From assembly GCA_034670305.1 (NCBI GenBank), contig JAXMNT010000092.1:1-13396 (forward strand): a stretch of 13,396 nt of DNA. The letters run 5' to 3'. This stretch comes from Deltaproteobacteria bacterium (GTDB lineage Bacteria > Myxococcota_A > Polyangia > Polyangiales > Houyiibacteriaceae). Below, in pieces: positions 1,320 to 13,269 of this stretch (positions are counted from its first letter, which is position 1; each line of letters starts with the position of its first letter). Made by a program: the position numbers and the translations under genes. Below the pieces are notes generated by a model. It did no database searches, was not told the origin of the DNA, and saw nothing but the letters and a program-made list of their open reading frames with translations.

Positions 1320-2723
1320 TCAGTACGCGTTCTTGCGAACCTTCGACCCGAACACCGTCAGGAAGATGATCTTGATGTCCCAGAGGAGCGACCAGTTTCG
1401 GATGTAGTAGAGATCGTGTTCGATCCGCTTCTCCATCTTCTCGAGCGTGTCGGTCTCTCCCCGCCAGCCATTGACCTGGGCCCAGCCGGTGATGCCGGGT
1501 TTGACCTTGTGGCGGAGCATGTAGCCCTGGATCTTGGAGCGGTACGCTTCGTTGTGGGTGACCGCGTGGGGGCGCGGGCCGACGATGCTCATGCTGCCGG
1601 TGATCACGTGCAGGAACTGGGGCAGCTCGTCGAGCGACGTGCGGCGGAGGAACGCGCCGAACTTCGTGATCCGCTGGTCGTTCTTCGTCGCCTGTTTCAC
1701 TTCGCCCCCGTCTTCCATGACGGTCATCGAGCGGAACTTCAGGACGTGAATGACCTCGCCGTTGAGCCCGTAGCGCCGCTGGCGAAAGAACACCGGACCA
1801 GGCGACGTGAGCTTAACGCCGATGGCGACGATGGTCATCGGGATCAGGATCAGCAGTAGAATCATGGTGCCGACGACGATGTCTTCGGCCCGCTTGAGCC
1901 AACCACTGACGCCATAGAACGGCGTCTCGTGAATGCTGACCACCGGGACGTCGCCGAGCGTGCCCCAGTTCGCGTGCAAGAGATCGAACGCGTAGAAGTC
2001 GGCCGCCATGTAGACGTCGGCGGTGGTGTCGGCGAGCTTGCGGACGAGCTCGTTGATGCGGGGCTCGGCGCGAAGCGGGAGCGCGATGTAGACGAGGTCG
2101 ACCTCGCCGTTCTTGGCCGCTTCGACCAGGTCGTCGAGATGGCCCTCGCGTTTGCCGAGCTCCGGCGGGATGGGGTGGCACCGCTCTTCGAAGCGGTCGT
2201 CGTAGTAGCCGAGGATCCGCAGCCCGAGGAAGGGCTGCTGCACGATGGTGCTGGCCACCCGTTCGCCGAGCTCCGTCAGACCGGCGATCGCGACCGCGCG
2301 GGTGTTGCGTCCTTGGCTGCGGGCCCGTCGAAGCACGAGGCGCAGCGCCGTGCGCCAGATCGCGATGCCGACCGGGGTGCCGATCCCCCAGAACAAGGAG
2401 ATCGCGCGGGAGTAGTCGGCCGAACGTTTCGAGACGAACGCGAGCAGCAGCAGCACCGCCGTCACCACGCCCCAGCTGAGGAACGCGCGGAAGACCTCGC
2501 GGCCGATCGTCTCCCCGCGCCACGCGCGGTAGAGGCCCATGCTCTGGGTCACGAAGTGGAAGAGGACGACGGCGACGATCGTCGCGGTCGTGTGCATCTC
2601 GCGCCAGTGCTCGCCGTTGAAGACGACCGCGCCGATGTGGACGCCGACGATGATGCCCGCGTCGATCCCCCGCATGGCGAGGTTCAGCACCGGGGAGTGT
2701 GGCTTGACCAGCCCGCCGCTCAT
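1320..2723 (-). CDS. wcaJ: Undecaprenyl-phosphate glucose phosphotransferase (WcaJ/EpsZ-type priming phosphoglycosyltransferase)
   Basis: Four N-terminal TM segments, central Rossmann-like region (VAIAG...LGYYDDR...VDLVYIALP), C-terminal bacterial sugar-transferase domain: KRAEDI...[13 protein letters not shown]...KFRSM...[22 protein letters not shown]...[11 protein letters not shown]...[16 protein letters not shown]...[16 protein letters not shown]. Confidence 0.95.
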
Positions 2724-2809
2724 CGGAACCCTCGAAGGCGGGTCTTGGCGCTCGCTTCAGGGCTGCTCATCCGGACGTGCGAGGTTTGCCGCAGGATGCG
2801 ATCGGACGC

Positions 2810-2877
2810 AACGGTTGTCTTCAGGGACACCCCAAGAAACGGTTGGAATCGAGCGATTGCAAGACAGCGATTGCAAG
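2810..2877. promoter_or_regulatory. Direct-repeat array in the divergent wcaJ/wza intergenic region (candidate transcription-factor operators)
   Basis: AGCGATTGCAAG at 2852-2863 and 2866-2877; AACGGTTG at 2810-2817 and 2838-2845; all fit ARCGRTTG on a 14-bp grid. Confidence 0.45.
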
Positions 2878-2890
2878 GGTACGAAGGCCC

Positions 2891-3871
2891 ATGCGGCTCT
2901 CGCTCCTCCTTCTCCTTGTGGTCGGCTGTGTCCGTTTGGACGACGCGCCCACCTTTCCTCAGGACGACCCCGAGTTCAGCGCGCCGCAACTCGCCGAGCC
3001 GACGGGGCTGGATGAAGATCCTCCGCGGGCGCTCACGCTCCTACCCGGCGATGAGGTGACGATCCAGGCGTTCAGCGCGGAGGTCACCCAGTACGAGGGC
3101 ATCCTCGTCGACGAGACCGGTCGCATCCATGTGCCCCTGGCCGGGGACGTCGACGTGGGTGGATTGACGTTGGCCGACGCCGAGGAGCGCGTACAAGAGG
3201 CGATGCGTCGCCTCGATCGCGTGGTTCGCGTGGGCCTGCGCATCTCGGTGCACGGCGGGCATCAGGCCTCCGTCATCGGCGCGGTCGGCGACCCGGGCCG
3301 GGTGCCCGCGACGCCGGGGATGCGCGTCGCGGATCTCCTCGCGGCTGCCGGTGGCCCCGCATCGCCGACGGAGGCGGGCACCAACCCGGTGGCCGATCTC
3401 TACGGCGCGCGGCTCATTCGCGCAGGCGAGGCGGTGCCGGTGAGCATCCCGAAGGCCCTTGAGGGGGACCCCCGCCACAACGTGCGGATTCAGCCCGGCG
3501 ATCACCTCTACGTACCCTCGGGACGCGGCAACACGATCACGGTGCTCGGCTCGGTGGGGGCCGCGGGCGTGTTCGCCTACCGACATGGCATTCGTCTGAC
3601 CGAGGTGCTGGCGCGTGCCGGTGGACTCGACGAACACGGCGACCGCACCGATGTGCACGTGGTGCGCGGTTCGCTGCGGGAGCCACAGGCGTACCGCGCG
3701 TCGCTGCGAGAGATCGTCAACGGCGGCCGCTCGGATGTGGTGCTGGCTGCGGGCGACGTCGTGTACGTGACCCAGGAGTGGACCTCCCACGTCGGCGAAG
3801 TCTTGAGCCGCCTGTCGATTCTCTTGGCCGATCCCGCCACGATCGCGCTCGCCATCGCTCTGACGCGCTGA
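2891..3871 (+). CDS. wza: Polysaccharide export lipoprotein (OPX/Wza family; Poly_export plus SLBB domains)
   Basis: From ATG 2891 a lipoprotein signal MRLSLLLLLVVG|C; PES motif LLPGDEVTI...VDETGRIHVPLAGDVDVGGLTL; SLBB-like repeats VIGAVGDPG...DLLAAAGG...IQPGDHLYVP and VLGSVGAAG...EVLARAGG...LAAGDVVYV; hydrophobic/amphipathic C-terminal helix. Confidence 0.88.
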   Translation: MRLSLLLLLVVGCVRLDDAPTFPQDDPEFSAPQLAEPTGLDEDPPRALTLLPGDEVTIQAFSAEVTQYEGILVDETGRIHVPLAGDVDVGGLTLADAEERVQEAMRRLDRVVRVGLRISVHGGHQASVIGAVGDPGRVPATPGMRVADLLAAAGGPASPTEAGTNPVADLYGARLIRAGEAVPVSIPKALEGDPRHNVRIQPGDHLYVPSGRGNTITVLGSVGAAGVFAYRHGIRLTEVLARAGGLDEHGDRTDVHVVRGSLREPQAYRASLREIVNGGRSDVVLAAGDVVYVTQEWTSHVGEVLSRLSILLADPATIALAIALTR

Positions 3872-3918
3872 TTCTGAGCCGTGAGCGCCTCAGCGCGGCG
3901 GACTTTTTTTCGAATCCG

Positions 3919-3948
3919 CTGTCGATCGACGCACGGTTCGTTCGACTC
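3919..3948 (+). promoter_or_regulatory. Putative ECF42 autoregulated promoter (-35 TGTCGA 3920-3925, 17-nt spacer, -10 CGAC 3943-3946)
   Basis: CTGTCGATC-N12-GTTCGACTC upstream of the DGPF-ECF42 operon; T7 tract at 3904-3910; matches the ECF42 consensus. Confidence 0.8.
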
Positions 3949-4003
3949 TCCTTCAGACCGCGGACACTTCCACCTCGTCCGCGCAACCAGGGGAGTTCAG
4001 CAC

Positions 4004-4360
4004 ATGCAGTACTTGTTGATGATCTACGAAGCGGAGTCCTTGAAAGAGGCCCGCACCGATGCGGACAACGGCGCCATCTACGGCGGCTACATGAAGTTCA
4101 CCGAAGAGCTCAAAGGCAGCGGCAAGATGCTGGCGGGCGACGCACTCGTCGGAACCAGCTCCGCCACGACGGTGCGGGTGCGCGACGGCAAGACCGTCCT
4201 GACCGACGGCCCGTTCGCCGAGACCAAGGAGCAACTCGGCGGGTACTACCTGATCGAAGCCGCGGACCTCGACGAAGCCACGGCCATCGCCGCGAAGATC
4301 CCGACCGCCGCGACGGGGTCGATCGAAGTCCGGCCGATCATGGTCTGGGACGACAAGTAG
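4004..4360 (+). CDS. YciI family / DGPF-domain protein
   Basis: MQYLLMIY start, hallmark ATTVRVRDGKTVLTDGPFAETKEQLGGYYLIEA...GSIEVRPI; RBS AGGGGAG at 3989-3995 before ATG 4004. Confidence 0.95.
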   Translation: MQYLLMIYEAESLKEARTDADNGAIYGGYMKFTEELKGSGKMLAGDALVGTSSATTVRVRDGKTVLTDGPFAETKEQLGGYYLIEAADLDEATAIAAKIPTAATGSIEVRPIMVWDDK

Positions 4361-4403
4361 CCTGAACCTCGCTGCACGTCGCACCCACGCGGTAGGGTGG
4401 GGC

Positions 4404-5669
4404 GTGCATCCGAGTTCCGACCGCACCGACGAGGTCGCCCGGGAGATCCAGCGCGTGGTGCGGGAGCACCACGGCTGGGTCATCGCGCGCCTGGTGCGGG
4501 CCGTCCGCGATTTGGATCTGGCCGAAGACGCACTCCAAGAAGCCCTCGAGGCCGCGTTGACCCAGTGGCCCGTTCAGGGGGTGCCGGACTCTCCGCGTGC
4601 GTGGCTCGTCCGGTCGGCCAGGAACAAGGCGATCGACGTGCTCCGGCGCCGGACGATGCGTCGAGGCAAGCAGGAAGAGATCGAGTGGCTCGAGACGCTG
4701 CGGCTCGAACAAACCCAAGCCCCCGTTCCCGAGGACGCCCTCTCCGACGACATGCTCCGACTGATCTTCATCTGCTGTCACCCCGCGCTCGCCATGGAGG
4801 CGCGGCTGGCGTTGACGCTCCGCACGATCGCGGGACTGACGACGGATGAGATCGCGCGCGCGTTTCTCGTGCCCGTGCCGACGATGGCGCAGCGGCTCGT
4901 GCGTGCGACGAAGAAGATCCGAGACGCGGGGGTGCCGTATCGGGTGCCACGGCAAGACGAACTCGACGAGCGGCTCAGCGGCGTGCTCGCGGTGATCTAC
5001 TTGGTGTTCAACGAGGGATACACCGCCACGTCCGGCGACACCCACGTGCGTCGCGCGCTCTGTTCGGTGGCGATCGACCTCGGCCGACAAGTGGCGCAAC
5101 TCTTTCCAGCCGAGCCGGAAGCGCTTGGGCTGCTCGCGTTGATGCTGCTGCAGGACTCCCGCCGCGAAGCGCGGATTGCCGAGGACGGCGCCCTCGTCTT
5201 GCTCGAGGCCCAAGACCGGACCCTGTGGGATCAGACCGCCATCGAGGAAGGGATCGCGCTGACCAAAGCCGCCCTCGAACAGTCCCGGCCGTCGCCTGGT
5301 CCCTACAGCCTTCAAGCCGCCATCGCGGCGGTGCACGCGGAAGCGCGGTCTCCGGAGGAGACGGACTGGCCGCAGATCGCCGGGCTCTACGGAGTGCTCT
5401 ACGAGCGCGCGCCCACCGCCGTCGTGGCCCTCAACCGCGCGGTCGCGATCGCATTCGCGTTCGGGTTCGAGCGGGGGCTGGAGGCGATGGACGCGCTCGC
5501 CGAACCACTCGCGCACTACCACCTGTTTCATTCGGCCCGGGCAGATCTACTTCGGCGCTGCACCCGCTACGCAGAGGCGGCCGCGGCATACGAGCGGGCG
5601 CTCGAGCTGTGCGAGAACGAAACGGAGCGCGCGTTCTTGCGCGACCGACTGCGGGGCGTGAGCAGCTAA
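4404..5669 (+). CDS. ECF42-group RNA polymerase sigma factor with C-terminal DUF6596/TPR extension
   Basis: Region 2 DLDLAEDALQEA...WP..GVPDSPRAWL..ARNKAIDVLRR; DDMLRLIFICCHPAL; region 4 LTLRTIAGLTTDEIARAFLV....MAQRLVRA; VIYLVFNEGY, GPYSLQAAIAAVH, TDWPQIAGLY, VVALNRAVA; directly downstream of a DGPF gene, the defining ECF42 context. Confidence 0.93.
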   Translation: MHPSSDRTDEVAREIQRVVREHHGWVIARLVRAVRDLDLAEDALQEALEAALTQWPVQGVPDSPRAWLVRSARNKAIDVLRRRTMRRGKQEEIEWLETLRLEQTQAPVPEDALSDDMLRLIFICCHPALAMEARLALTLRTIAGLTTDEIARAFLVPVPTMAQRLVRATKKIRDAGVPYRVPRQDELDERLSGVLAVIYLVFNEGYTATSGDTHVRRALCSVAIDLGRQVAQLFPAEPEALGLLALMLLQDSRREARIAEDGALVLLEAQDRTLWDQTAIEEGIALTKAALEQSRPSPGPYSLQAAIAAVHAEARSPEETDWPQIAGLYGVLYERAPTAVVALNRAVAIAFAFGFERGLEAMDALAEPLAHYHLFHSARADLLRRCTRYAEAAAAYERALELCENETERAFLRDRLRGVSS

Positions 5670-5777
5670 GAAGCGGAAGCGGTAGCGGACGCGGAAGCGG
5701 AAGCGGAAGCGGAGGCGGAAGCGGAAGCGGAAGCCGACGCCGACGCCGACGCCGACGCCGAATCCGAAGCCGATGCG
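5670..5777. repeat. Degenerate hexamer tract, about 18 units (GAAGCG switching to GACGCC/GAAGCC), starting immediately after the sigma-factor stop codon
   Basis: Read directly; consensus GAHGCS, essentially the reverse complement of the 1075-1284 tract. Confidence 0.92.
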
Positions 5778-5808
5778 CCCGAGCGGTGATCCGTGGTTCC
5801 ATACCTGG

Positions 5809-7317
5809 ATGCAGGCGGGGCGGGTCTTGGATCGGTACGAGGTGTGGGGGCGGCTGTCGGCGGGCGGGATGAGCGAGGTGTACCTCGCGCGGCATCAGCG
5901 GCTCGCGATCCCGGTGGTGGTGAAGTCGCTGTTGCCCGATCTCGCCAACCACGCCGCCCTCTCCGAAGGGCTCTTGCGATCGGCGCGGTTGATGGCGCGG
6001 GTCACCGCGCCGCAGATCGTCCGCATCCTGGACGTCGGTGAGTTCGAGGACGAAGGCGCGGCCGGGGGCACCGCGCGCAACGCGGTCTTCCTCGTGGAGG
6101 AGTACATCGACGGGGTCGACCTGTCCGAACTCGGCATGTCGCGGCGGGTCTCCCTGAAACGTTCGTTGCCGCTGTGGGCGGTGGCGGGGTGGACGGCGGA
6201 AGCGGCCACGGGACTGCACGCGGCACACCAAGCAGGGGTGCTGCATCGGGACGTGAAACCGGCGAACCTCTTTCTCACCGCGGACGGCATGGTGAAGGTC
6301 GGTGACTTCGGCGTGGCGGTGGAAGCCAAACAGGCCGCGAGTTCCGTCGCCGCAGGGACACTCCGGTTCATCGCGCCCGAGATGATCCTCGGGCAACCCG
6401 CGGACCGCCGAGCCGATCTCTTCTCGCTCGGCGCCACCGCCTTCGCGATGCGGTACGGCATCTCACCATTCGCAGACACGCAGTCCCTCTGTGATCCCGC
6501 GATCGGCCCCCGGTTCCCGCCGGCCTCCACGCCTTACGAAGCGTTCTTCCAACACGTGCTCGGGGGCCTCTTGGCCAACCGGCCAGACGCCCGCCCGCGC
6601 ACGGCGGCCAGCGTCTCGGGCGTGCTCGCCAAACTCAGCCGGCCCATCGTGCCGCGGCTGCCGATCCTCGCCGAGCCCAACGGCGACCTGCGGGTCGACG
6701 GATGCTGGATCCGCTTCGAACTCGGGGACATCGCGGAGGCGGAAGCCGACGTCATCGTCAACAGCGCCTACTCGTCCATGACGATGGGCGACGGGGTGGG
6801 TGCCGCGCTCAAGCGCGCGGGTGGCGCCGTCGTGGAAGAAGAGGCGCTGGCCGCTGGCGAACAGGCCCTCGGTGCATGCGTCTCGACCACGGCCGGCGCA
6901 CTCAAGGCGAAACACGTCTTCCACGCGGTGTCGGCCTGGAACCAAGTCTCGTGCGTCGCGCGTGCGACCCACCGCGCGCTCGTGCTCGCGGAGGCCGGCG
7001 GACACCGGCGCATCGCGATGCCCGCGATCGGCACGGGTCAGGGCCGGGTCGCGAACGAAGCCTGCGCCCAAGCGATCGCCGGCGTCCTGAAGCTGCACCT
7101 CCTGCTCGGAGGTTCCGGCCTCGAGTCGCTCCACCTGGTGCTCTACGACGAGGAAGCCCTGAGCGCGTTCCGGGAGGTCTTCGCGGGGGTCTTCGCTCCC
7201 GACCAGGCGCGGGAGAGTTCGATGATCCACGACGCCCTTCCGGCCTCCTCCGAGGACTTCCACGCCCCGACCCTGCACGCGTTGAGCACCGACAAAACCG
7301 GCCCACTGGTCGGCTAG
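5809..7317 (+). CDS. Hanks-type Ser/Thr protein kinase fused to a C-terminal macrodomain (ADP-ribose-binding fold)
   Basis: Kinase motifs SAGGMSEVY, VVVK, HRDVKPANL, VKVGDFG, GTLRFIAPE, DLFSLG; macro motifs GDIAEAEADVIVNSAY...GDGVGAALKRAGG, TTAGALKAKHVFHAV, IAMPAIGTG. No TM segment seen. Start 5809 preferred because the ORF-track start at 5773 lies in the repeat tract. Confidence 0.88.
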   Translation: MQAGRVLDRYEVWGRLSAGGMSEVYLARHQRLAIPVVVKSLLPDLANHAALSEGLLRSARLMARVTAPQIVRILDVGEFEDEGAAGGTARNAVFLVEEYIDGVDLSELGMSRRVSLKRSLPLWAVAGWTAEAATGLHAAHQAGVLHRDVKPANLFLTADGMVKVGDFGVAVEAKQAASSVAAGTLRFIAPEMILGQPADRRADLFSLGATAFAMRYGISPFADTQSLCDPAIGPRFPPASTPYEAFFQHVLGGLLANRPDARPRTAASVSGVLAKLSRPIVPRLPILAEPNGDLRVDGCWIRFELGDIAEAEADVIVNSAYSSMTMGDGVGAALKRAGGAVVEEEALAAGEQALGACVSTTAGALKAKHVFHAVSAWNQVSCVARATHRALVLAEAGGHRRIAMPAIGTGQGRVANEACAQAIAGVLKLHLLLGGSGLESLHLVLYDEEALSAFREVFAGVFAPDQARESSMIHDALPASSEDFHAPTLHALSTDKTGPLVG

Positions 7318-7399
7318 GCCACGCCATCCGAGCGCCTTTCGGGTCCATCGCCGAAGTCAGGCGGCGCTTTGGGGCGAGTTGCCGTATAAGTCGGCGCTT

Positions 7400-10300
7400 A
7401 TGGGCTTTACCAGCTACCTCATGGGGGCCGAGTCGCTCCTGGTTCAGTGCGCCGAGATCTTGCTCGACCGCGGTCACTTCATTCGCGGCGTCATCACCGA
7501 CAACCGCGAGATCGTGCAGTGGGCGCGTGGCCGCTCGATCCCGGTGCTCGCACCCGGGCGCGGACTCGAGGAGCGCATCACGGAGGACTTCGATTGGTTC
7601 TTCTCCATCGCGAACCTGCGCATCATCTCGGACGCGGTCCTCGCGAAGGCGAACGCCGGCGCCGTCAACTTCCACGACGGCCCCCTCCCGCGTTTCGCCG
7701 GACTCAACGCGCCGAACTGGGCGCTGCTCGAGAACGAACCCCGCCACGGGATCACGTGGCACAAGATCGAAGCCGGCATCGACGAAGGCCACGTCATGGC
7801 CCGCCGCGAGTTCGACATGCCCGAGCTCGCCACCGCGCTCGAGTTGAACACCGCTTGCTACGAAGCGGCGATCGACAGCTTTCCGGAGGTGCTCGAGCGC
7901 ATCGAGAAGGGCGACACGACCGGCGAACCGCAGGACCTCTCGCGCCGCACCTACTTCGGCAAACACGACCGGCCGCCCGCGCTCGCGCTGATCGACTTCT
8001 CGGGCGAAGCCGAGGCCGCGGTGCGCCTCGTGCGCGCGCTCGACTTCGGCACGAAGTACCCGAACCCGATGCAGATCGCGAAGGTCGTCCTGGACGGCGA
8101 GGTGCTCCTCGTCCGGAGCGCCGAGGTCGGGCACGCCACGGGTGCACCCGGCACGGTGCTCGAAGCGGACGTGAACGGGGCCACCGTCGCGGCCGGAAAC
8201 GGCTCGGTCGTGCTCACCTCGCTGACGACGCAAGACGGCGTCGCCCGCTGCCCCTCGACGCTGGCAGGCAAGACCCTTGAGCTCTTCGACGCGGTGACGC
8301 GGCAACGGCTCACCGACCGCAACGCGGAGATCTGCAAGGCGGACGACTTCTACGCGGCGCGGCTCGAAGCCCTCGACCCGATCGAACTGCCCATGCTCGG
8401 TGCCCGCACCGAAGCGCCTCAGCAGGCGATGGTCGAGGTCGACGCGGGTGGCCTCGAGGGGCCGCAGTGGGTGGCCGGCGTTGCGGCGTTCTTGGCCCGG
8501 GCCGGCGCCAAGAAGTCCTTCCACGTTGGGTGGCGCGGACGAACCCTGGCCGCCGCGATCGAAGGCGACGAGCGGTTCTTCGCGTCGTCGGTGCCGATGA
8601 AGGTCGACGCCTCCGGCACCATCGCGACGCTCGGCGCGCTGCTCGAGAAAGAGCTCGGACGGCTCGACGCGCGGGTCAGCTTCGCGCGCGATCTCGTCGC
8701 CCGCCGACCCCGCGCGGTTCGGGGCACGCTCGATGTGGTCGTCGCGCCGCTCGCCGAGGGACTCGTCGATGGCTCGGGACTGACCCTGGCGCTCGGCAAG
8801 ATCTACTACGACTGCAAGCGGCTCTCCGCGGCCGACGCGAGCACCCTCGCGCGCCGCCTCGGCGTGCTGCTGACCGCCGTCGAAGACGACACCGAGGTCA
8901 GCGACCTCCCGCTCCTGACCGACGCGGAGCGCCGGCAGCTGCTCTTCGACTGGAACGCAACGCAGACCGAGTTCGACCGGGACAGCTGCATGCACCAGCT
9001 CTTCGAGAAGATGGTGGACGCGACACCGGACGCGACCGCGCTGGTCTTCGAAGGCGCGCGTCTGACCTACCGGCAGCTCGACGAGCGCGCGAACCAGGTC
9101 GCCCACGTGCTGCAGAGCCGCGGCGTCGGACCGGACGCGATCGTCGGTTTGTACGTACACCGTTCGCTCGAGCTCGTCGTCGGTGCGCTCGGCATCCTCA
9201 AAGCCGGCGGCGCCTACCTGCCGCTCGACCCGGAGTACCCCGCGGACCGCATCGCGCTCATGCTCGAGGACAGCCGCGCGAAGGTGGTGCTCACCCACGT
9301 CGAAGCGAGCCGCACCCTGCAGACCAGCGCGGAGGTGCTCGTCATCGATCGAGACCCGGAGGTGCTGCGCGCGCCGACCGCACGGGTCGCGTCGAAGGTC
9401 ACCTCGAAGAACCTCTCGTACGTCATCTACACCTCGGGTTCGACCGGGCGCCCCAAGGGCGTGATGATCGAACACCGCAACGTCTCGAACTTCTTCGCCG
9501 GCATGGACGCACGCATTCCGCGTCCGGATGCGGGCAGTGGCAAAGAGGTCTGGCTCGCGGTCACGAGTTTGAGCTTCGACATCTCGGTCCTCGAGCTCTT
9601 CTGGACGATCGCGCGCGGCTTCACCGTGGTCGTGCACCGGGAGCGCGAACGCCGCGGTCCGGGCGCCGTGTCTCCGCAGGTTGCGGCGCGGCCCATGGGG
9701 TTCGGCCTCTTCTACTGGGGCAACGACGACGGTCAGGGACCGCGCAAGTACGAGCTCCTGCTCGAAGGCGCAAAGTTCGGCGACCGGAACGGGTTCACTT
9801 CCATCTGGACGCCCGAGCGGCACTTCCATGCGTTCGGCGGTCCCTATCCGAACCCGGCCGTGACCGGCGCAGCGGTCGCTGCGGTGACGCGCAACATGGA
9901 CGTGCGCGCGGGCAGCTGCGTCGCGCCCCTGCACCACCCGATTCGCATCGCGGAGGAGTGGGCGGTCATCGACAACCTGACCAACGGACGCGTCGGCCTC
10001 GCGTTCGCATCCGGTTGGCAGCCCGACGACTTCGTGATTCGCCCCGAGAACGCGCCCCCGAAGAACAAGGACGCGATGCTCGACTCGATCGACGTCGTGC
10101 GGCGCCTCTGGCGCGGCGAGTCCGTGGAGTTCGACAAGGGCGACGGCGAGATGTTCGCTGTGGTGACCCAGCCGCGCCCGGTCTCCGCGGAGCTGCGGGT
10201 CTGGGTGACGACCGCCGGCAACCCCGAGACTTGGCGGGCCGCGGGAGAGAAGGGCGCCAACGTCCTCACCCATCTGCTCGGTCAGTCGATCGAAGAGGTT

Positions 10301-11962
10301 GGCGAGAAGATCAAGGTCTACCACCAGGCGCTCCGCGACGCGGGGCACGACCCGGCCGACCACGCGGTCACCCTGATGCTCCACACGTTCCTCGCGGACA
10401 CCCGCGAAGAGTCGCGTGAGATCGCCCGCGAACCGATGAAGGGTTACCTGCGCGCCGCGGCCGGGCTCATCAAGCAGTACGCCTGGGCGTTCCCCGCGTT
10501 CAAGAAGCCGGCCGGCGTCGAGAACCCCTTCCAGATCGATCTGCAGTCGCTCTCGACCGAAGAGATGGACGCGATCCTCGACTTCGCCTTCACCCGGTAC
10601 TTCGAGGACAGTGGACTCTTCGGCACGATCGAAGACGCGGTCACGCGGGTGAACGAGCTCAAAGCCATCGGCGTCGACGAAGTGGCGTGCCTCATCGACT
10701 ACGGCATCGAACCCCGGGTCGTGCTCGAACATCTCAAGCACGTCGCGAAGGTCATCGCGCAGACCGGCGAACCGGTGCTCGAAGCGCCGGCCCCCGACGC
10801 GGATCATTCGGTCGCCGCGCAGCTCACCCGCGAAGCGGTCACGCACATGCAGTGCACGCCCTCGATGGCGCGGCTGATGACCCTCGACGACCGCGCGCGG
10901 ACCGCGCTGCGCGGCCTGCAGTGTTTCTTGATCGGCGGCGAAGCCTTGCCGGGTGCGCTTGTCGGGGAGATCGGAACGCTGACCGATGCGCACATCGAGA
11001 ACATGTACGGGCCGACCGAGACGACCATCTGGTCCTCCACCCAGACCGCGGCCGCGGGCGATGGCATCACGGGCATCGGCACGCCGATCGCCAACACCCA
11101 GATGTACGTACTCGACCTCGATCGGCAGCCGGTTCCGGTTGGCGCACCTGGGGAACTCTTCATCGGCGGCGACGGCGTGACGCGCGGCTACCTCTACCGC
11201 GACGAACTCACCCGCGAACGGTTCCTGCCCGATCCGTTCCGGGGTGGCGACGCGCGCATGTACCGCACGGGGGACCTGGTTCGGTGGTTGCCCGACGGCA
11301 CGCTCGGGTTCATCGGCCGGGTCGATCATCAGGTGAAGCTGCGCGGCTACCGCATCGAACTCGGTGAGATCGAATCAAGGCTCAACGAATGTTCCGAGGT
11401 CCGCGAGGCGATCGTGATCGCGCGCGAGGACACACCAGGCGACAAACGGTTGGTGGCGTACATGACGGTCGACGCGGAGATCGACGAGGCTCAACTTCGG
11501 GCGCATCTGGGCGAGTCGCTGCCGGAGTACATGGTGCCGAGTCACTTCGTGGTGCTGGATGCGTTCCCGCTCACGCCGAACGCCAAGGTGGACCGCAAGA
11601 AGCTGCCTCCGCCGGGCGAAGTCAAACGCGCGAAGGCGGCCGCATACGTGGCACCCGACAGCGACACCGAAGTGAAGATCGCCGAGGTGTGGAAGAAGGT
11701 GCTCGGCGCCTCTCAGGCCGGATCGCGCGACAATTTCTTCGAGCTTGGCGGGCACTCGCTCTTGGCCGTGCAAGCGCACCGGGAGCTCAAGGGCATGTTT
11801 CCGAGCGCGACCCTCTCCATCACCGACATCTTCCGGTTTCCGACGCTGGGAGAGCTCGCGGCGCATCTCGACGGCGGCAGCGGTGGATCGAAGAAGCTCG
11901 GCAAGGCGGCGGAGCGTGCGGCCGCTCGGCGAGAGATGATGCGAAAGCGTCGTGGTCGCTGA
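7400..11962 (+). CDS. Single-module NRPS: formyltransferase - degenerate condensation-like linker - adenylation domain interrupted by a MupA/Atu3671-type luciferase-like monooxygenase - peptidyl carrier protein
   Basis: F: NFHDGPLPRFAG, HKIEAGIDEG. A: LTYRQLDERANQ (A1), LKAGGAYLPLDP (A2), YVIYTSGSTGRPKG (A3), SFDISV (A4), NMYGPTETTIW (A5), GELFIGGDGVTRGY (A6), YRTGD (A7), GRVDHQVKLRGYRIELGEIE (A8), PNAKVDR (A10). LLM about 9695-10762: FGLFYWG...WTPERHFHAFGGPYPNP...HHPIRIAEEWAVIDNLTNGRVGLAFASGW. T: DNFFELGGHSLL (Ser codon 11756-11758). No TE. Confidence 0.93.
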   Translation: MGFTSYLMGAESLLVQCAEILLDRGHFIRGVITDNREIVQWARGRSIPVLAPGRGLEERITEDFDWFFSIANLRIISDAVLAKANAGAVNFHDGPLPRFAGLNAPNWALLENEPRHGITWHKIEAGIDEGHVMARREFDMPELATALELNTACYEAAIDSFPEVLERIEKGDTTGEPQDLSRRTYFGKHDRPPALALIDFSGEAEAAVRLVRALDFGTKYPNPMQIAKVVLDGEVLLVRSAEVGHATGAPGTVLEADVNGATVAAGNGSVVLTSLTTQDGVARCPSTLAGKTLELFDAVTRQRLTDRNAEICKADDFYAARLEALDPIELPMLGARTEAPQQAMVEVDAGGLEGPQWVAGVAAFLARAGAKKSFHVGWRGRTLAAAIEGDERFFASSVPMKVDASGTIATLGALLEKELGRLDARVSFARDLVARRPRAVRGTLDVVVAPLAEGLVDGSGLTLALGKIYYDCKRLSAADASTLARRLGVLLTAVEDDTEVSDLPLLTDAERRQLLFDWNATQTEFDRDSCMHQLFEKMVDATPDATALVFEGARLTYRQLDERANQVAHVLQSRGVGPDAIVGLYVHRSLELVVGALGILKAGGAYLPLDPEYPADRIALMLEDSRAKVVLTHVEASRTLQTSAEVLVIDRDPEVLRAPTARVASKVTSKNLSYVIYTSGSTGRPKGVMIEHRNVSNFFAGMDARIPRPDAGSGKEVWLAVTSLSFDISVLELFWTIARGFTVVVHRERERRGPGAVSPQVAARPMGFGLFYWGNDDGQGPRKYELLLEGAKFGDRNGFTSIWTPERHFHAFGGPYPNPAVTGAAVAAVTRNMDVRAGSCVAPLHHPIRIAEEWAVIDNLTNGRVGLAFASGWQPDDFVIRPENAPPKNKDAMLDSIDVVRRLWRGESVEFDKGDGEMFAVVTQPRPVSAELRVWVTTAGNPETWRAAGEKGANVLTHLLGQSIEEVGEKIKVYHQALRDAGHDPADHAVTLMLHTFLADTREESREIAREPMKGYLRAAAGLIKQYAWAFPAFKKPAGVENPFQIDLQSLSTEEMDAILDFAFTRYFEDSGLFGTIEDAVTRVNELKAIGVDEVACLIDYGIEPRVVLEHLKHVAKVIAQTGEPVLEAPAPDADHSVAAQLTREAVTHMQCTPSMARLMTLDDRARTALRGLQCFLIGGEALPGALVGEIGTLTDAHIENMYGPTETTIWSSTQTAAAGDGITGIGTPIANTQMYVLDLDRQPVPVGAPGELFIGGDGVTRGYLYRDELTRERFLPDPFRGGDARMYRTGDLVRWLPDGTLGFIGRVDHQVKLRGYRIELGEIESRLNECSEVREAIVIAREDTPGDKRLVAYMTVDAEIDEAQLRAHLGESLPEYMVPSHFVVLDAFPLTPNAKVDRKKLPPPGEVKRAKAAAYVAPDSDTEVKIAEVWKKVLGASQAGSRDNFFELGGHSLLAVQAHRELKGMFPSATLSITDIFRFPTLGELAAHLDGGSGGSKKLGKAAERAAARREMMRKRRGR

Positions 11963-11974
11963 TAGGCTTCCCAC

Positions 11975-12538
11975 GTGGCGATGAACGTACGAACGCGGGG
12001 GCACGTGCTCCAGCGCCACATCTCCTACGTCGAGACCCGGTGGGGCGAGGAGATGCTGGAGTCCGCATTCGAGCTCTGCTCGAATGGGGTGGCCAATGCG
12101 CTTCGGGAAGCGCTGGTCCCTGGCGCGTGGTTTCCCATCCTCTGGCTCAGCCGGTTTCAGCACGCGGTGGTGGCCGCGACGGACAACGTCGAAGCCATCG
12201 AAGACCTCTCGTACGACACTTCGACGGGGTACATCAGTCAGTTCTCGGGACTCGCCGCGCATGTGCTCAGCCCCTCGGGCGTGCTGCGCAAGGTCCCGAG
12301 CATGCTCGGTGACTCGTTTCACGGCCCCGAGGTGGTGATCGAAGTCGAAGGGGACCGTGCCACCGTGCATCACACCAAGTGCGCGGGCTTCGACTCGTTG
12401 ATGTGGGGCATGATGCACGCGGGCCTCGTGGGCATGCTCGATGGCACCGGCGCGCACGACGTCCGGCAGGAGATCCTGCGGGGCGGGGGCACCAGCGACG
12501 AGTGCCTGCTCGAACTGAAGTGGCGTCGCCGCACCTGA
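11975..12538 (+). CDS. Small V4R/HNOX-like protein resembling myxobacterial DUF2378/TIGR02265-type proteins; function unknown
   Basis: Fills the gap between NRPS and PPTase on the same strand; pattern RG....V...WG...L.PGAWFP...SP..VL...G.LVGML...G...C.LELKW resembles this family (recognised by eye). Start GTG 11975 or ATG 11981. Confidence 0.6.
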   Translation: MAMNVRTRGHVLQRHISYVETRWGEEMLESAFELCSNGVANALREALVPGAWFPILWLSRFQHAVVAATDNVEAIEDLSYDTSTGYISQFSGLAAHVLSPSGVLRKVPSMLGDSFHGPEVVIEVEGDRATVHHTKCAGFDSLMWGMMHAGLVGMLDGTGAHDVRQEILRGGGTSDECLLELKWRRRT

Positions 12539-12564
12539 CGACGGCGCAGTCGACCTTGGACCCC

Positions 12565-13269
12565 GTGCTGGCTTCTGACAACGCAGACCTCTTCGCCCGA
12601 CTCTTCAAGGGCCCGGTGGTGGTGGAAGAGATGGACCCCGCGTCGGTGCCTGCCGACTTGTCTCCGCTCCATCCAGGCGAAGCGGCGATGATGGCCCGCG
12701 CGGTGGAGAAGCGTCGCCGAGAGTTCACCGCCGGGCGCGTCCTCGCGCGCACCGCGATGGGGCGGCTCGGGATCTCCGAGCAGCCGCTTCTCAATGGAGA
12801 CGACCGGGCCCCCATCTGGCCCGCCGGCGTGGTCGGCACCATCACCCACACCCGCGGCTGGTGCGCGGTGGCGATGGCGAAGGCGACCGACGTGCGGGCG
12901 CTGGGTGCCGACGTCGAACAAGACACACCGCTCGAAGCGCGCCTCTGGGACTCCGTGCTCAACCCAGACGAGATCGACCACCTTCAAGGCATGCACGCGG
13001 ACGAGGCACGCGCGCTCGGCAAACTCATCTTCAGCGCCAAGGAGTGCGCCTACAAAGCGCAGTACCTGCTGACCCGAACGTTCCTCGGGTTCTCGGCCAT
13101 GAGCGTCTCGGTCGACGCCGATGCGCGTTCGGACAGTGGTTCGTGGACGGCGACCTTCCGCCAATCCGCCGGTGAGTCGTTTCAGACGGGAGACCAACTC
13201 CACGGAAGCTTCCGCCGCACCGGTGGGCTGATCGCCACCGCGCTCGTGATCCCGTTCGAGTTGGGATAG
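12565..13269 (+). CDS. 4'-phosphopantetheinyl transferase, EntD/Npt type
   Basis: AVEKRRREFTAGR..AR.AM..LG, DRAPIWPAGVVGTITHT, ALGADVE, IFSAKECAYKAQY motifs. Start uncertain (GTG 12520, TTG 12556 or GTG 12565). Confidence 0.9.
   Translation: MLASDNADLFARLFKGPVVVEEMDPASVPADLSPLHPGEAAMMARAVEKRRREFTAGRVLARTAMGRLGISEQPLLNGDDRAPIWPAGVVGTITHTRGWCAVAMAKATDVRALGADVEQDTPLEARLWDSVLNPDEIDHLQGMHADEARALGKLIFSAKECAYKAQYLLTRTFLGFSAMSVSVDADARSDSGSWTATFRQSAGESFQTGDQLHGSFRRTGGLIATALVIPFELG

Follow-up and report, generated by a model that had tools for sequence, protein, structure and literature searches.

The gene at positions 7400-11962 of the window, by which the whole analysed stretch of 13,396 nucleotides is meant, encodes a nonribosomal peptide synthetase (NRPS) composed of a formyltransferase (F) domain, one lobe of a condensation (C) domain, an adenylation (A) domain split by a luciferase-like monooxygenase (LLM), and a thiolation (T) domain. 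The enzyme probably serves as a loading module that delivers an α-hydroxy-N-formylglycyl thioester, held on its T domain, to a separate polyketide synthase (PKS). The domain content, motifs, orthology and NRPS-PKS co-occurrence underlying this reading were established directly. Formylating starters, monooxygenase-split glycine A domains and α-hydroxylating LLMs are each understood singly and their combination is common. The architecture is unexplained, not unseen, and has been an orphan in the literature for years.

The window is one complete contig, which extends 127 bp beyond the gene of a 4'-phosphopantetheinyl transferase (PPTase); it is therefore uninformative on what follows downstream. 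Its features are as follows.

1320-2723, minus strand: WcaJ-type undecaprenyl-phosphate glucose phosphotransferase, exopolysaccharide (EPS) priming (Bac_transf and CoA_binding_3)
2777-3871, plus strand: Wza-like polysaccharide export protein with Poly_export and SLBB (Pfam, NCBIfam)
5773-7317, plus strand: fusion of a Ser/Thr kinase with a macro domain, immediately upstream of the NRPS gene (Pfam)
7400-11962, plus strand: F-C(lobe)-A(LLM)-T NRPS gene, coding for 1520 aa when counted from the ATG (domain profiles, homologue N-termini, GC3)
7400-8236, plus strand: formyltransferase domain, N and C subdomains (Pfam)
8291-8932, plus strand: C-terminal lobe of a condensation domain, residues 305-518 (predicted fold, Foldseek, structural alignment)
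9002-9655, plus strand: N-terminal part of the A domain, A1-A4, with FDIS at 9575-9586 (Pfam, motifs)
9701-10753, plus strand: FMN-dependent LLM inserted between A4 and A5 (TIGR04020, PuwE match)
10790-11605, plus strand: C-terminal part of the A domain, with A5 NMYGPTE at 11000, A7, A8 and the A10 Lys1403 (Pfam, motifs)
11675-11869, plus strand: thiolation (PCP) domain, GGHSL with Ser1460 (Pfam, motif)
11891-11959, plus strand: conserved Arg-rich C-terminal tail, R1517 and R1524 invariant (homologue alignment)
11975-12538, plus strand: 187-aa protein whose predicted fold is H-NOX-like, with distant similarity to DUF2378 (GC3 of 0.86, AF2 model)
12379-13269, plus strand: Sfp/EntD-type PPTase (4PPT_N with E 5e-26, ACPS; PptT/Npt-like by NCBIfam)

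The open reading frame of the NRPS comprises 1527 codons, from a TTG at 7379 to 11962, and the ATG at 7400 is its likely start, as an earlier sequence-only reading of this DNA had given, since the N-termini of homologues begin there; residue numbers are counted from the TTG. The GC3 of the gene (0.88) matches the expectation for a real gene of the host genome, a test that a 1475-aa frame on the antisense strand fails. Pfam profiles locate Formyl_trans_N at residues 80-172 (E 5e-11), Formyl_trans_C at 202-286, AMP-binding in two separate pieces (E 6e-88), Bac_luciferase at 785-1100 (E 1e-44), AMP-binding_C at 1330-1403 and PP-binding at 1433-1497, while the best overall match of the protein in the PDB is LgrA. 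The sequence-only reading had described a starter protein made of F, A, LLM and T without a thioesterase (TE) or reductase (R) domain. Pfam and NCBIfam scans recovered all four domains, a motif scan reproduced exactly the A4 and A5 positions between which the LLM had been placed, and the whole protein, scanned with Pfam and for motifs, contains no TE, R or HHxxxDG; the half C domain is the one element that reading had missed. An N-terminal formyltransferase fold with its catalytic triad is thus followed by A and T, and no donor-accepting C domain is present, in agreement with the starter position assigned previously. The observation made on this NRPS is confirmed and its interpretation is supported. 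The Arg-rich tail could possibly act as a docking element.

The F domain carries the motif NFHDGPLPRFAG, the counterpart of which in Fmt and ArnA is N-x-H-x-SLLP-xx-RG. Residues N97, H99 and D135 align with the Asn, His and Asp of these two enzymes, and none of the three varies among the 13 aligned homologues, which bears out the catalytic N/H/D motifs claimed earlier. In searches of the PDB, the domain matched Fmt (3tqq, E 1.5e-15) and ArnA (E 5.8e-14), and the F domain of LgrA, the sole structurally characterised NRPS F domain, only at E 2e-4, placing it far nearer to Fmt and ArnA. As GPLP and AG stand where Fmt and ArnA carry SLLP and RG, the substrate of the domain is only putative. The altered motif, the best PDB matches to Fmt, ArnA and sugar N-formyltransferases instead of the LgrA domain, and the EPS priming and export genes adjoining the NRPS would also fit an F domain that does not act on tethered glycine, either formylating an amino sugar of a polysaccharide pathway or lying idle, in which case unformylated glycine or hydroxyglycine would be delivered. 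Such a role is very unlikely, given that the domain is fused to the N-terminus of a donor-less starter, as in LgrA, with an invariant triad, that an LLM-less look-alike with GPLP in Kitasatospora (L060) lacks any match to the polysaccharide queries, and that the NRPS-PKS pair elsewhere also lacks glycan neighbours among the scanned genes. Formylation of the glycyl amine accordingly remains the preferred role for the F domain.

Between the F and A domains, the AF2 model of residues 287-545 (pLDDT 91.2) returned C domains as all of its top Foldseek matches, and structural comparison aligned 204 residues of the lobe with residues 175-439 of EntF (Z 16.9, rmsd 2.9). This C domain is found by fold search and is invisible to a PDB sequence search with residues 8-534 (window positions 7400-8980), which returned no C domain and just a C-A linker. 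Both the N-lobe and the HHxxxD motif are absent; lacking the N-lobe and the catalytic histidines of HHxxxDG, the lobe is probably a structural spacer or scaffold.

The A domain possesses the motifs A3, A7, A8 and A10, all recovered by motif scan, and its specificity code, re-read by motif position, is DILQLGMIWK, the same glycine-type code that the sequence-only reading had derived; nine of the ten positions are identical in all 13 homologues. In a PDB search of the pocket stretch run at E 0.01 (a threshold of E 1e-8 gave no match), the best match was a DhbF fragment (5u89), which has Q, L, G, L, I and W against Q, L, G, M, I and W here, with five of the six residues identical. Module 1 of DhbF activates glycine. 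The second-best match was the second A domain of LgrA, which is likewise glycine-activating and was rejected as a model of the pocket because its code, D-I-A-N-L-C-I-I-Y, differs; the first A domain of DhbF was retained instead. Judged by its code, the specificity of the A domain is glycine-type.

The inserted LLM scores 475.7 bits against the NCBIfam model TIGR04020 (MupA/Atu3671 LLM; cut-off 244.45), and its closest solved relative is PuwE (PDB 6ket, E 1e-102), the match spanning the whole LLM domain and the whole 362-aa chain. MupA, the namesake of TIGR04020, α-hydroxylates ACP-bound thioesters in vitro (PMC10952193), the Ox domain of PuwE is the proposed maker of a 2-hydroxy acyl chain (PMC4219810), and the LLM inserted in the glycine module of MtaG and MelG is proposed to hydroxylate Cα, the resulting carbinolamide then dealkylating to give an amide and a carrier-bound α-keto acid (PMC11411415). 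By analogy, the hydroxylated thioester formed here might cleave itself into formamide and a glyoxylyl-S-T, so that a glyoxylyl (2-oxoacetyl) group would be the PKS starter and the formyl group merely a transient activating or protecting group. This option, already raised in the sequence-only reading, draws on an LLM and a glycine code like those of MtaG and MelG, but it is unlikely: the keto acid is the waste and the amide the product of MtaG, so that the waste would become the product here, and spending formyl-tetrahydrofolate merely to lose formamide would be costly. Furthermore, at neutral pH peptidyl-α-hydroxyglycines persist long enough that peptide amidation requires a lyase, and no gene resembling a lyase was seen in the window. 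Retention of the α-hydroxy-N-formylglycyl unit is therefore preferred.

The reading of the NRPS as a starter implies a partner in trans, to which the sequence-only reading had also assigned the hand-over. The host genome encodes, on another contig (C32:52468-59121), a PKS with the order KS-AT-KR-DH-CP-TE and intact motifs (KS Cys-His-His, AT GHSMG, carrier GGHSL, TE GFSGG), which shares 50% identity with the roseobacter PKS and 66% with that of locus L001. Across the host genome and 40 relatives, NRPS and PKS are both present in the same 17 genomes and both absent from the remaining 24. Of the 38 loci whose NRPS orthologue is full-length, 31 have a full-length PKS orthologue within 10 kb, counts weighted heavily to related roseobacters; in six more loci the PKS match is only partial (single-HSP coverage 0.37-0.89), and the one locus without a match is a 4.7-kb contig. 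The gene order outside the roseobacters is NRPS then PKS (L016, L017, L025, L032 and L041). In 12 relatives, a GT2 gene comes directly 3' of the PKS, at a distance of 33-977 bp, and it is present in 16 of the 17 genomes that hold both synthases; the orthologue of the host genome (C37:66903-67868, 52-54% identical) does not adjoin the PKS. On this phylogenetic profile, the C32 PKS is the missing partner of the NRPS, to which the starter unit would be handed over.

The placement of KR before DH is atypical for a single-extension module, and this PKS could be used iteratively. The glycine starter would then be extended repeatedly to an N-formyl-amino polyenoic acid, pigment-like or lipid-like, and not to a C4 unit. 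Iterative PUFA and enediyne synthases likewise place KR before DH, the host PKS lacks an ER, and NCBIfam assigns it no characterised equivalog, PfaA-type synthases being among its partial matches. Sequence nevertheless cannot tell iterative from single use, the GT2 and glycan genes suit a small polar unit equally well, and papers of 2015 and 2022 on the roseobacter cluster tie no pigment or lipid phenotype to it, making repeated extension rather improbable. A single extension is retained in the scheme given below.

With the PKS on C32 and the GT2 gene on C37, the host genome carries the cassette at three separate loci. That the PKS might lie just past the end of the NRPS contig is ruled out, as it sits in the middle of C32 (52.5-59.1 of 87.4 kb), at least 28 kb from either end and among unrelated genes. 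Its neighbours there encode kinases, a pectate lyase, an aldo-keto reductase and a PKD protein. Given the three contigs and these unrelated neighbours, co-regulation of NRPS, PKS and GT2 is not to be assumed. The dispersal might be taken to mean that the cassette is breaking up, with the NRPS orphaned from a working pathway after the PKS and GT2 had moved, the more so since the closest relative (G004/L001) still has its PKS 6.4 kb from the NRPS. This is improbable in the extreme: the three genes are intact full-length frames with every catalytic motif, the PPTase is still adjacent, and NRPS-PKS linkage is loose in other genomes of the same family (1-52 kb), two of which (G013 and G024) also keep the pair 43-52 kb apart. 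A dispersed and working cassette is thus assumed in what follows.

The assembly line is proposed to operate as follows, and we infer from sequence each of its chemical steps, that formylation comes before hydroxylation, and what becomes of the product. The PPTase beside the NRPS would prime Ser1460 of the T domain, the A domain would adenylate glycine and load it onto T, and the N-terminal F domain would formylate the glycyl amine with N10-formyl-tetrahydrofolate. The FMNH2-dependent LLM would then hydroxylate the α-carbon of the thioester-bound glycine, supplied by a flavin reductase acting in trans; no flavin reductase gene was found within the window. With no C, TE or R activity in the module, transfer to a ketosynthase would be the sole exit for the oxidised N-formylglycyl unit. 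The putative acceptor, the KS-AT-KR-DH-CP-TE protein on C32, would add one malonyl unit, followed by reduction and dehydration, to give a 4-formamido-4-hydroxybut-2-enoyl-type chain released by its TE. The N-acyl-α-hydroxyglycine unit may be unstable as such. The GT2 gene and the polysaccharide priming and export genes suggest that the released unit is glycosylated or placed on a surface glycan, and the product may therefore be glycan-linked.

The neighbours of the NRPS bear on this last point. The WcaJ-type priming enzyme scores 542 bits against TIGR03023 (cut-off 410.75), and polysaccharide genes flank the NRPS here, in L001 and in the roseobacter locus L004; none was found among the genes scanned beside the NRPS-PKS pair in L016, L017 and L032, and in L025 a GT2 gene without sequence kinship to that of the roseobacters lies between NRPS and PKS. 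Of 38 loci, 25 have a PPTase gene downstream of the NRPS. In the host genome it adjoins the NRPS region with the gene of the 187-aa protein in between, and its true start is probably later in the frame, the first ATG past the upstream stop being at about 12631 as read by eye.

The 187-aa gene is kept between NRPS and PPTase only in the closest relatives and holds the same place in L001 and L013; the kinase-macro gene holds the same place in L001. The 187-aa protein has no match in Pfam or NCBIfam, and a word-based homologue search found two relatives where an exhaustive search found 112. Its AF2 model (pLDDT 95.8) resembles H-NOX proteins over the full length (TM 0.72-0.74), and 5 of 40 family members match DUF2378. 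H-NOX haem sensors have a conserved proximal His and a Y-x-S-x-R haem-binding motif. The sequence alignment of 40 family members has no His, Tyr, Ser or Arg in invariant or near-invariant columns. Because the LLM needs FMNH2, this protein was considered as its flavin reductase, a role to which the predicted H-NOX fold gives no support. Both it and the kinase-macro protein are lineage-specific neighbours and may be regulators.

A more far-reaching proposal, which is possible but doubtful, is that NRPS, PKS and GT2 jointly produce a small C4 acyl unit, glycosylated and bearing a formamido or aldehyde group, which would be built into or onto surface polysaccharide as a primer, cap or decoration, with the H-NOX-fold and kinase-macro proteins acting in sensing or regulation. 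If this were true, it would represent an undescribed NRPS-PKS-dependent route of glycan modification in hundreds of species and many phyla, and, provided that the glycan link holds, a new type of surface-polysaccharide chemistry.

Proteins of this architecture are abundant: among the 120 matches listed, all carry PF00551, PF00296, PF00501 and PF00550 and measure 1488-1566 aa. Loci from named genomes belong to Myxococcota, Alpha-, Beta- and Gammaproteobacteria, Chloroflexota, Acidobacteriota and Actinomycetota, as well as a Salinivenus MAG. The earlier mention of similar proteins in Proteobacteria lacking a characterised product thus stands, although the family is far wider than that phylum. 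Full-text searches aimed at a product or at this architecture named no characterised product, with the proviso that an assignment in a subscription journal could be missed, and no characterised enzyme was found that joins a formylating starter to an LLM-split glycine A domain. A PKS/GT/NRPS/PPTase cluster has been described in 28 of 57 roseobacter genomes with an uncharacterised product (PMC4337385), is attributed there to Martens et al., and had an uncharacterised product in papers of both 2015 and 2022. Identification of the product would fill a long-standing gap for the roseobacters, an ecologically dominant marine group. The present work contributes a myxobacterial member with a dispersed cassette, a clean phylogenetic profile linking NRPS, PKS and GT2, and two lineage-specific NRPS neighbours as possible regulators.

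Among known systems, the roseobacter cluster shares with the host genome a full-length NRPS orthologue of the same architecture (51-55% identical), orthologues of the PKS, GT2 and PPTase, and polysaccharide genes around the NRPS. It forms one operon, PKS-GT2-NRPS-PPTase, whereas the host genes lie on three contigs, and the kinase-macro and H-NOX-fold genes that flank the host NRPS (each in 1 of the 38 loci) are both absent from the roseobacter loci. MtaG and MelG, of myxothiazol and melithiazol biosynthesis, also carry an LLM between A4 and A5 of a glycine-type A domain, a likeness taken from their published description (PMC11411415). According to that description, they are termination modules, C-A(MOx)-T-TE, with working C and TE domains and an amide on the upstream chain as product, in contrast to the F starter with half a C domain and no TE found here.

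The F-A-PCP loader LgrA of linear gramicidin shares the N-terminal F domain before A and T and the starter position. The N-formylglycine loaders of oxazole polyketides are F-A-PCP formylating modules, and loaders of this kind share the glycine code and the hand-over to a downstream synthase. Compared with LgrA, the F domain described here is remote in sequence, and the C-lobe spacer between F and A and the LLM within A are additional; we know of no LgrA-type or oxazole-polyketide formylating loader with an LLM insertion. The LLM-less Kitasatospora protein (L060) has the arrangement F-C(lobe)-A-T with the same GPLP motif and glycine code, and precedes a PKS. Finally, MupA and PuwE belong to the same TIGR04020 LLM family, with thioester α-hydroxylation shown for the former and proposed for the latter. 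MupA is free-standing and acts in trans on a PKS and the LLM of PuwE lies between PKS and NRPS modules, whereas the LLM described here interrupts an A domain, and its substrate would be an N-formyl amino acid.

The genome that holds the window comprises 7.9 Mb in 105 contigs, one of which, complete at 13,396 bp, is the window itself. By its best matches that carry names, the genome falls in Myxococcota, close to Sandaracinus and to MAGs of Sandaracinaceae. Its nonribosomal peptide synthetase (NRPS) gene lies in an open reading frame extending from 7379 to 11962 on the forward strand, which is backed by codon-position GC (GC3 0.88), and the start placed at 7400 by the sequence-only reading is the probable one, since the Met encoded there is where homologues begin in the alignment. 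A long antisense frame (6902-11329) was ruled out as a gene by codon-position GC. With residues counted from the TTG at 7379, the following Pfam domains were assigned to the NRPS:

80-172, Formyl_trans_N
202-286, Formyl_trans_C
785-1100, Bac_luciferase, with AMP-binding split into two pieces
1330-1403, AMP-binding_C
1433-1497, PP-binding

The Pfam and NCBIfam scan and the motif positions confirmed the organization described in that reading as a whole, namely a formyltransferase (F) domain, an A domain interrupted by a luciferase-like monooxygenase (LLM) domain, and a thiolation (T) domain, with FDIS exactly at 9575-9586 and NMYGPTE at 11000. The A3, A7, A8, A10 and GGHSL motifs are all intact. 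Behind the T domain, an Arg-rich C-terminal tail (window 11891-11959, consensus RAAARR-x-AM-x-RRR) is kept from Myxococcota to roseobacters and might be a docking element for a polyketide synthase (PKS).

The specificity code DILQLGMIWK, previously derived by manual alignment, was recovered when the Stachelhaus positions were read from the motifs; nine of them do not vary across the 13 aligned homologues, and the tenth is L, M or F. When only the pocket-lining stretch was searched against the PDB, the first rank was a DhbF cross-module fragment (5u89), whose Q, L, G, L, I and W align to Q, L, G, M, I and W of the NRPS, DhbF module 1 being the glycine module of bacillibactin synthetase. The next rank was the second A domain of LgrA, a glycine domain whose own code differs. 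Glycine is thus well supported as the predicted substrate by the code and these pocket matches.

PDB matches of the F domain include Fmt (E 1.5e-15) and ArnA (E 5.8e-14), and the catalytic triad ascribed to it holds: Asn97, His99 and Asp135 fall on the catalytic Asn, His and Asp of both proteins and are invariant across the aligned NRPS family. Where Fmt and ArnA have SLLP...RG, this domain has GPLP...AG, and its similarity to the F domain of LgrA is only remote (E 2e-4). Action of the F domain on another substrate is considered very improbable. A Kitasatospora protein (L060) has the same F motif and glycine code, a comparable spacer and a PKS behind it, with the LLM absent, which suggests that the chassis of F domain, condensation-type lobe, glycine A domain and T domain may exist without the oxygenase too. 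N-formylglycine loaders start the oxazole polyketides. In a complete genome from the same family as the genome of the window, a second frame of 1286 aa (G012:C1:6597572-6600823) occurs besides the NRPS orthologue; it is 33-38% identical to the F and A parts, lacks the LLM and is possibly an LLM-less paralogue.

Residues 287-541, left unnamed in the sequence-only reading, have no Pfam match, and a PDB sequence search with residues 8-534 returned only the C-A linker for this stretch. A fold model built on an alignment of 25 family members reached pLDDT 91.2, and its top Foldseek matches were all NRPS condensation domains. Model residues 19-232 align structurally onto EntF 175-439 (Z 16.9, rmsd 2.9, 204 aligned), with comparable ranges in McyB, TycC and AB3403, all of which represent the C-terminal lobe of the condensation domain, so the NRPS is predicted to carry half a condensation domain, the catalytic lobe being absent. 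The motif scan found no HHxxxDG anywhere in the NRPS.

The LLM falls in NCBIfam TIGR04020, the MupA/Atu3671 family (475.7 bits, cut-off 244.45), and its nearest solved structure across the whole domain is PuwE (6ket, E 1e-102), the second-best LLM in the PDB reaching only 3e-26. The PuwE Ox domain has been proposed to generate the 2-hydroxyl of the fatty acid in puwainaphycin (PMC4219810), alpha-hydroxylation of ACP-bound thioesters has been demonstrated in vitro for MupA, which gives the family its name (PMC10952193), and MtaG and MelG, whose monooxygenase is likewise inserted in a glycine module, are proposed to hydroxylate C-alpha, followed by chain release as an amide (PMC11411415). By analogy with these precedents, alpha-hydroxylation of the tethered glycyl unit would be the best-founded activity of the LLM. 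An MtaG-like collapse of the hydroxylated unit, giving formamide and a glyoxylyl starter, is unlikely.

Taken from sequence, the NRPS is probably a loading module that would form N-formyl-alpha-hydroxyglycyl-S-T and hand this unit from its T domain to a PKS, which would perform one malonyl extension followed by reduction, dehydration and TE release. The partner is seen across genomes. A genome-contig pattern search (597 of 599 matches confirmed) left 80 loci, and among the 38 with a full-length NRPS match, mostly related roseobacters whose counts are therefore not independent, a full-length PKS orthologue lies within 31, a partial match (single-HSP coverage 0.37-0.89) within six, and none within one, a 4.7-kb contig. 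Beyond the roseobacters, the NRPS comes ahead of the PKS, in Chloroflexota (L016), Agarilytica (L017), Salinivenus (L025), Acanthopleuribacter (L032) and Acidimicrobiaceae (L041). The slot between the two genes seems to collect tailoring enzymes: in L025 it holds a GT2 unrelated to that of the cassette (14098-15012), and in L032 an oppositely oriented short-chain dehydrogenase gene (14764-15819).

In the own genome and 40 relatives, with NRPS matches counted if they ran from the F domain into or past the LLM, NRPS and PKS occupy an identical set of 17 genomes, the remaining 24 having generic A-domain or KS-AT matches only, or none; on one contig, the two lie 1-52 kb apart. The cassette GT2 is present in 16 of the 17 and was not found in G005, an assembly of 870 contigs and 93% completeness. 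G015 has the GT2 too, with an internal stop, and weaker matches (39-41%) appear in three more genomes. In 12 relatives, the GT2 starts 33-977 bp behind the PKS. In the own genome, the orthologues lie on other contigs:

C32, 52468-59121 (10469-17125 in extracted locus L081), PKS orthologue, mid-contig among unrelated neighbours
C37, a third contig, 66903-67868 (9874-10935 in L083), GT2 orthologue, 52-54% identical

The C37 GT2 has a multi-pass membrane protein of 537 aa and a weakly Wzz-like protein of 729 aa ahead of it and a SAM methyltransferase behind it, with recA at a distance of about 7 kb. That the cassette, dispersed over three contigs, is decaying in this genome is hardly credible; the C32 PKS keeps an intact KS Cys-His-His, AT GHSMG, an NRPS-type, PCP-like carrier motif GGHSL, and TE GFSGG. 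No NCBIfam equivalog fits it. Its AT has RAAHS at the place of the specificity motif, which is HAFH or YASH in malonyl- or methylmalonyl-specific ATs. A KR, with an additional KR-prefix domain, stands ahead of the DH, and this order points to iterative use of the PKS, which is nevertheless judged quite unlikely beside the single extension of the loading-module proposal.

The neighbours in the window are:

1320-2723, reverse strand, WcaJ-type priming transferase (542 bits against a WcaJ equivalog cut-off of 410.75)
2777-3871, forward, Wza-like gene
3881-5669, forward, YCII-domain gene and ECF sigma factor carrying DUF6596, flanked by the Wza-like gene and the kinase
5773-7317, forward, immediately ahead of the NRPS, Ser/Thr kinase with a fused macro (ADP-ribose-binding) domain
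11975-12538, forward, 187-aa gene between NRPS and PPTase
12379-13269, forward, Sfp/EntD-type PPTase (Pfam, NCBIfam)

The closest relative (G004, locus L001) has the order PKS, unknown gene, priming transferase, Wza, kinase-macro, NRPS, small protein and PPTase, which the window shares from the priming transferase on, without the PKS and with the YCII/sigma-factor pair. This pair looks like an insertion, as the Wza-like gene and the kinase are adjacent in L001. The kinase-macro gene is directly upstream of the NRPS there too (8220-9794) and occurs in none of the 37 other full-length-NRPS loci. The 187-aa protein has no Pfam or NCBIfam match; its family counts 112 representatives with lengths near 190 aa, and five of 40 members touch DUF2378, a distant affinity. 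Its model (pLDDT 95.8) is matched by H-NOX proteins at TM 0.72-0.74; haem binding appears doubtful because the invariant and near-invariant alignment columns listed contain no His. The place of the gene between NRPS and PPTase is kept in no relatives beyond the closest ones (L001, L013), and its product might sense or carry a small molecule in connection with the pathway. The polysaccharide link of the NRPS-PKS pair is frequent and not universal, no polysaccharide genes being found among those scanned beside it in L016, L017 and L032; the fate of the released product is possibly tied to GT2 or a glycan.

A word-indexed homologue search gave 1434 matches out of 8000 scored candidates, and the 120 matches listed all have the four key Pfam domains, 1488-1566 aa and 52-81% identity to the NRPS, those named being from Sandaracinaceae/Myxococcota MAGs and many Roseobacter-group genera. 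At a Cognatishimia locus, the NRPS gene belongs to an operon of GT2, Wzx-like flippase, PKS (KS-AT-KR-DH-CP-TE), GT2, NRPS, PPTase, Wzz and a priming sugar transferase. This operon is the NRPS/PKS/GT/PPTase cluster conserved in the Roseobacter group, which was reported from 28 of 57 genomes, its product uncharacterised (PMC4337385); the NRPS genes were still termed uncharacterised in a 2022 paper (PMC9769649). Searches of openly available full texts for a product or for this architecture yielded none. The gene adds one more member to a large orphan family, itself a so far uncharacterised variation on known NRPS starter modules and monooxygenase-containing modules.
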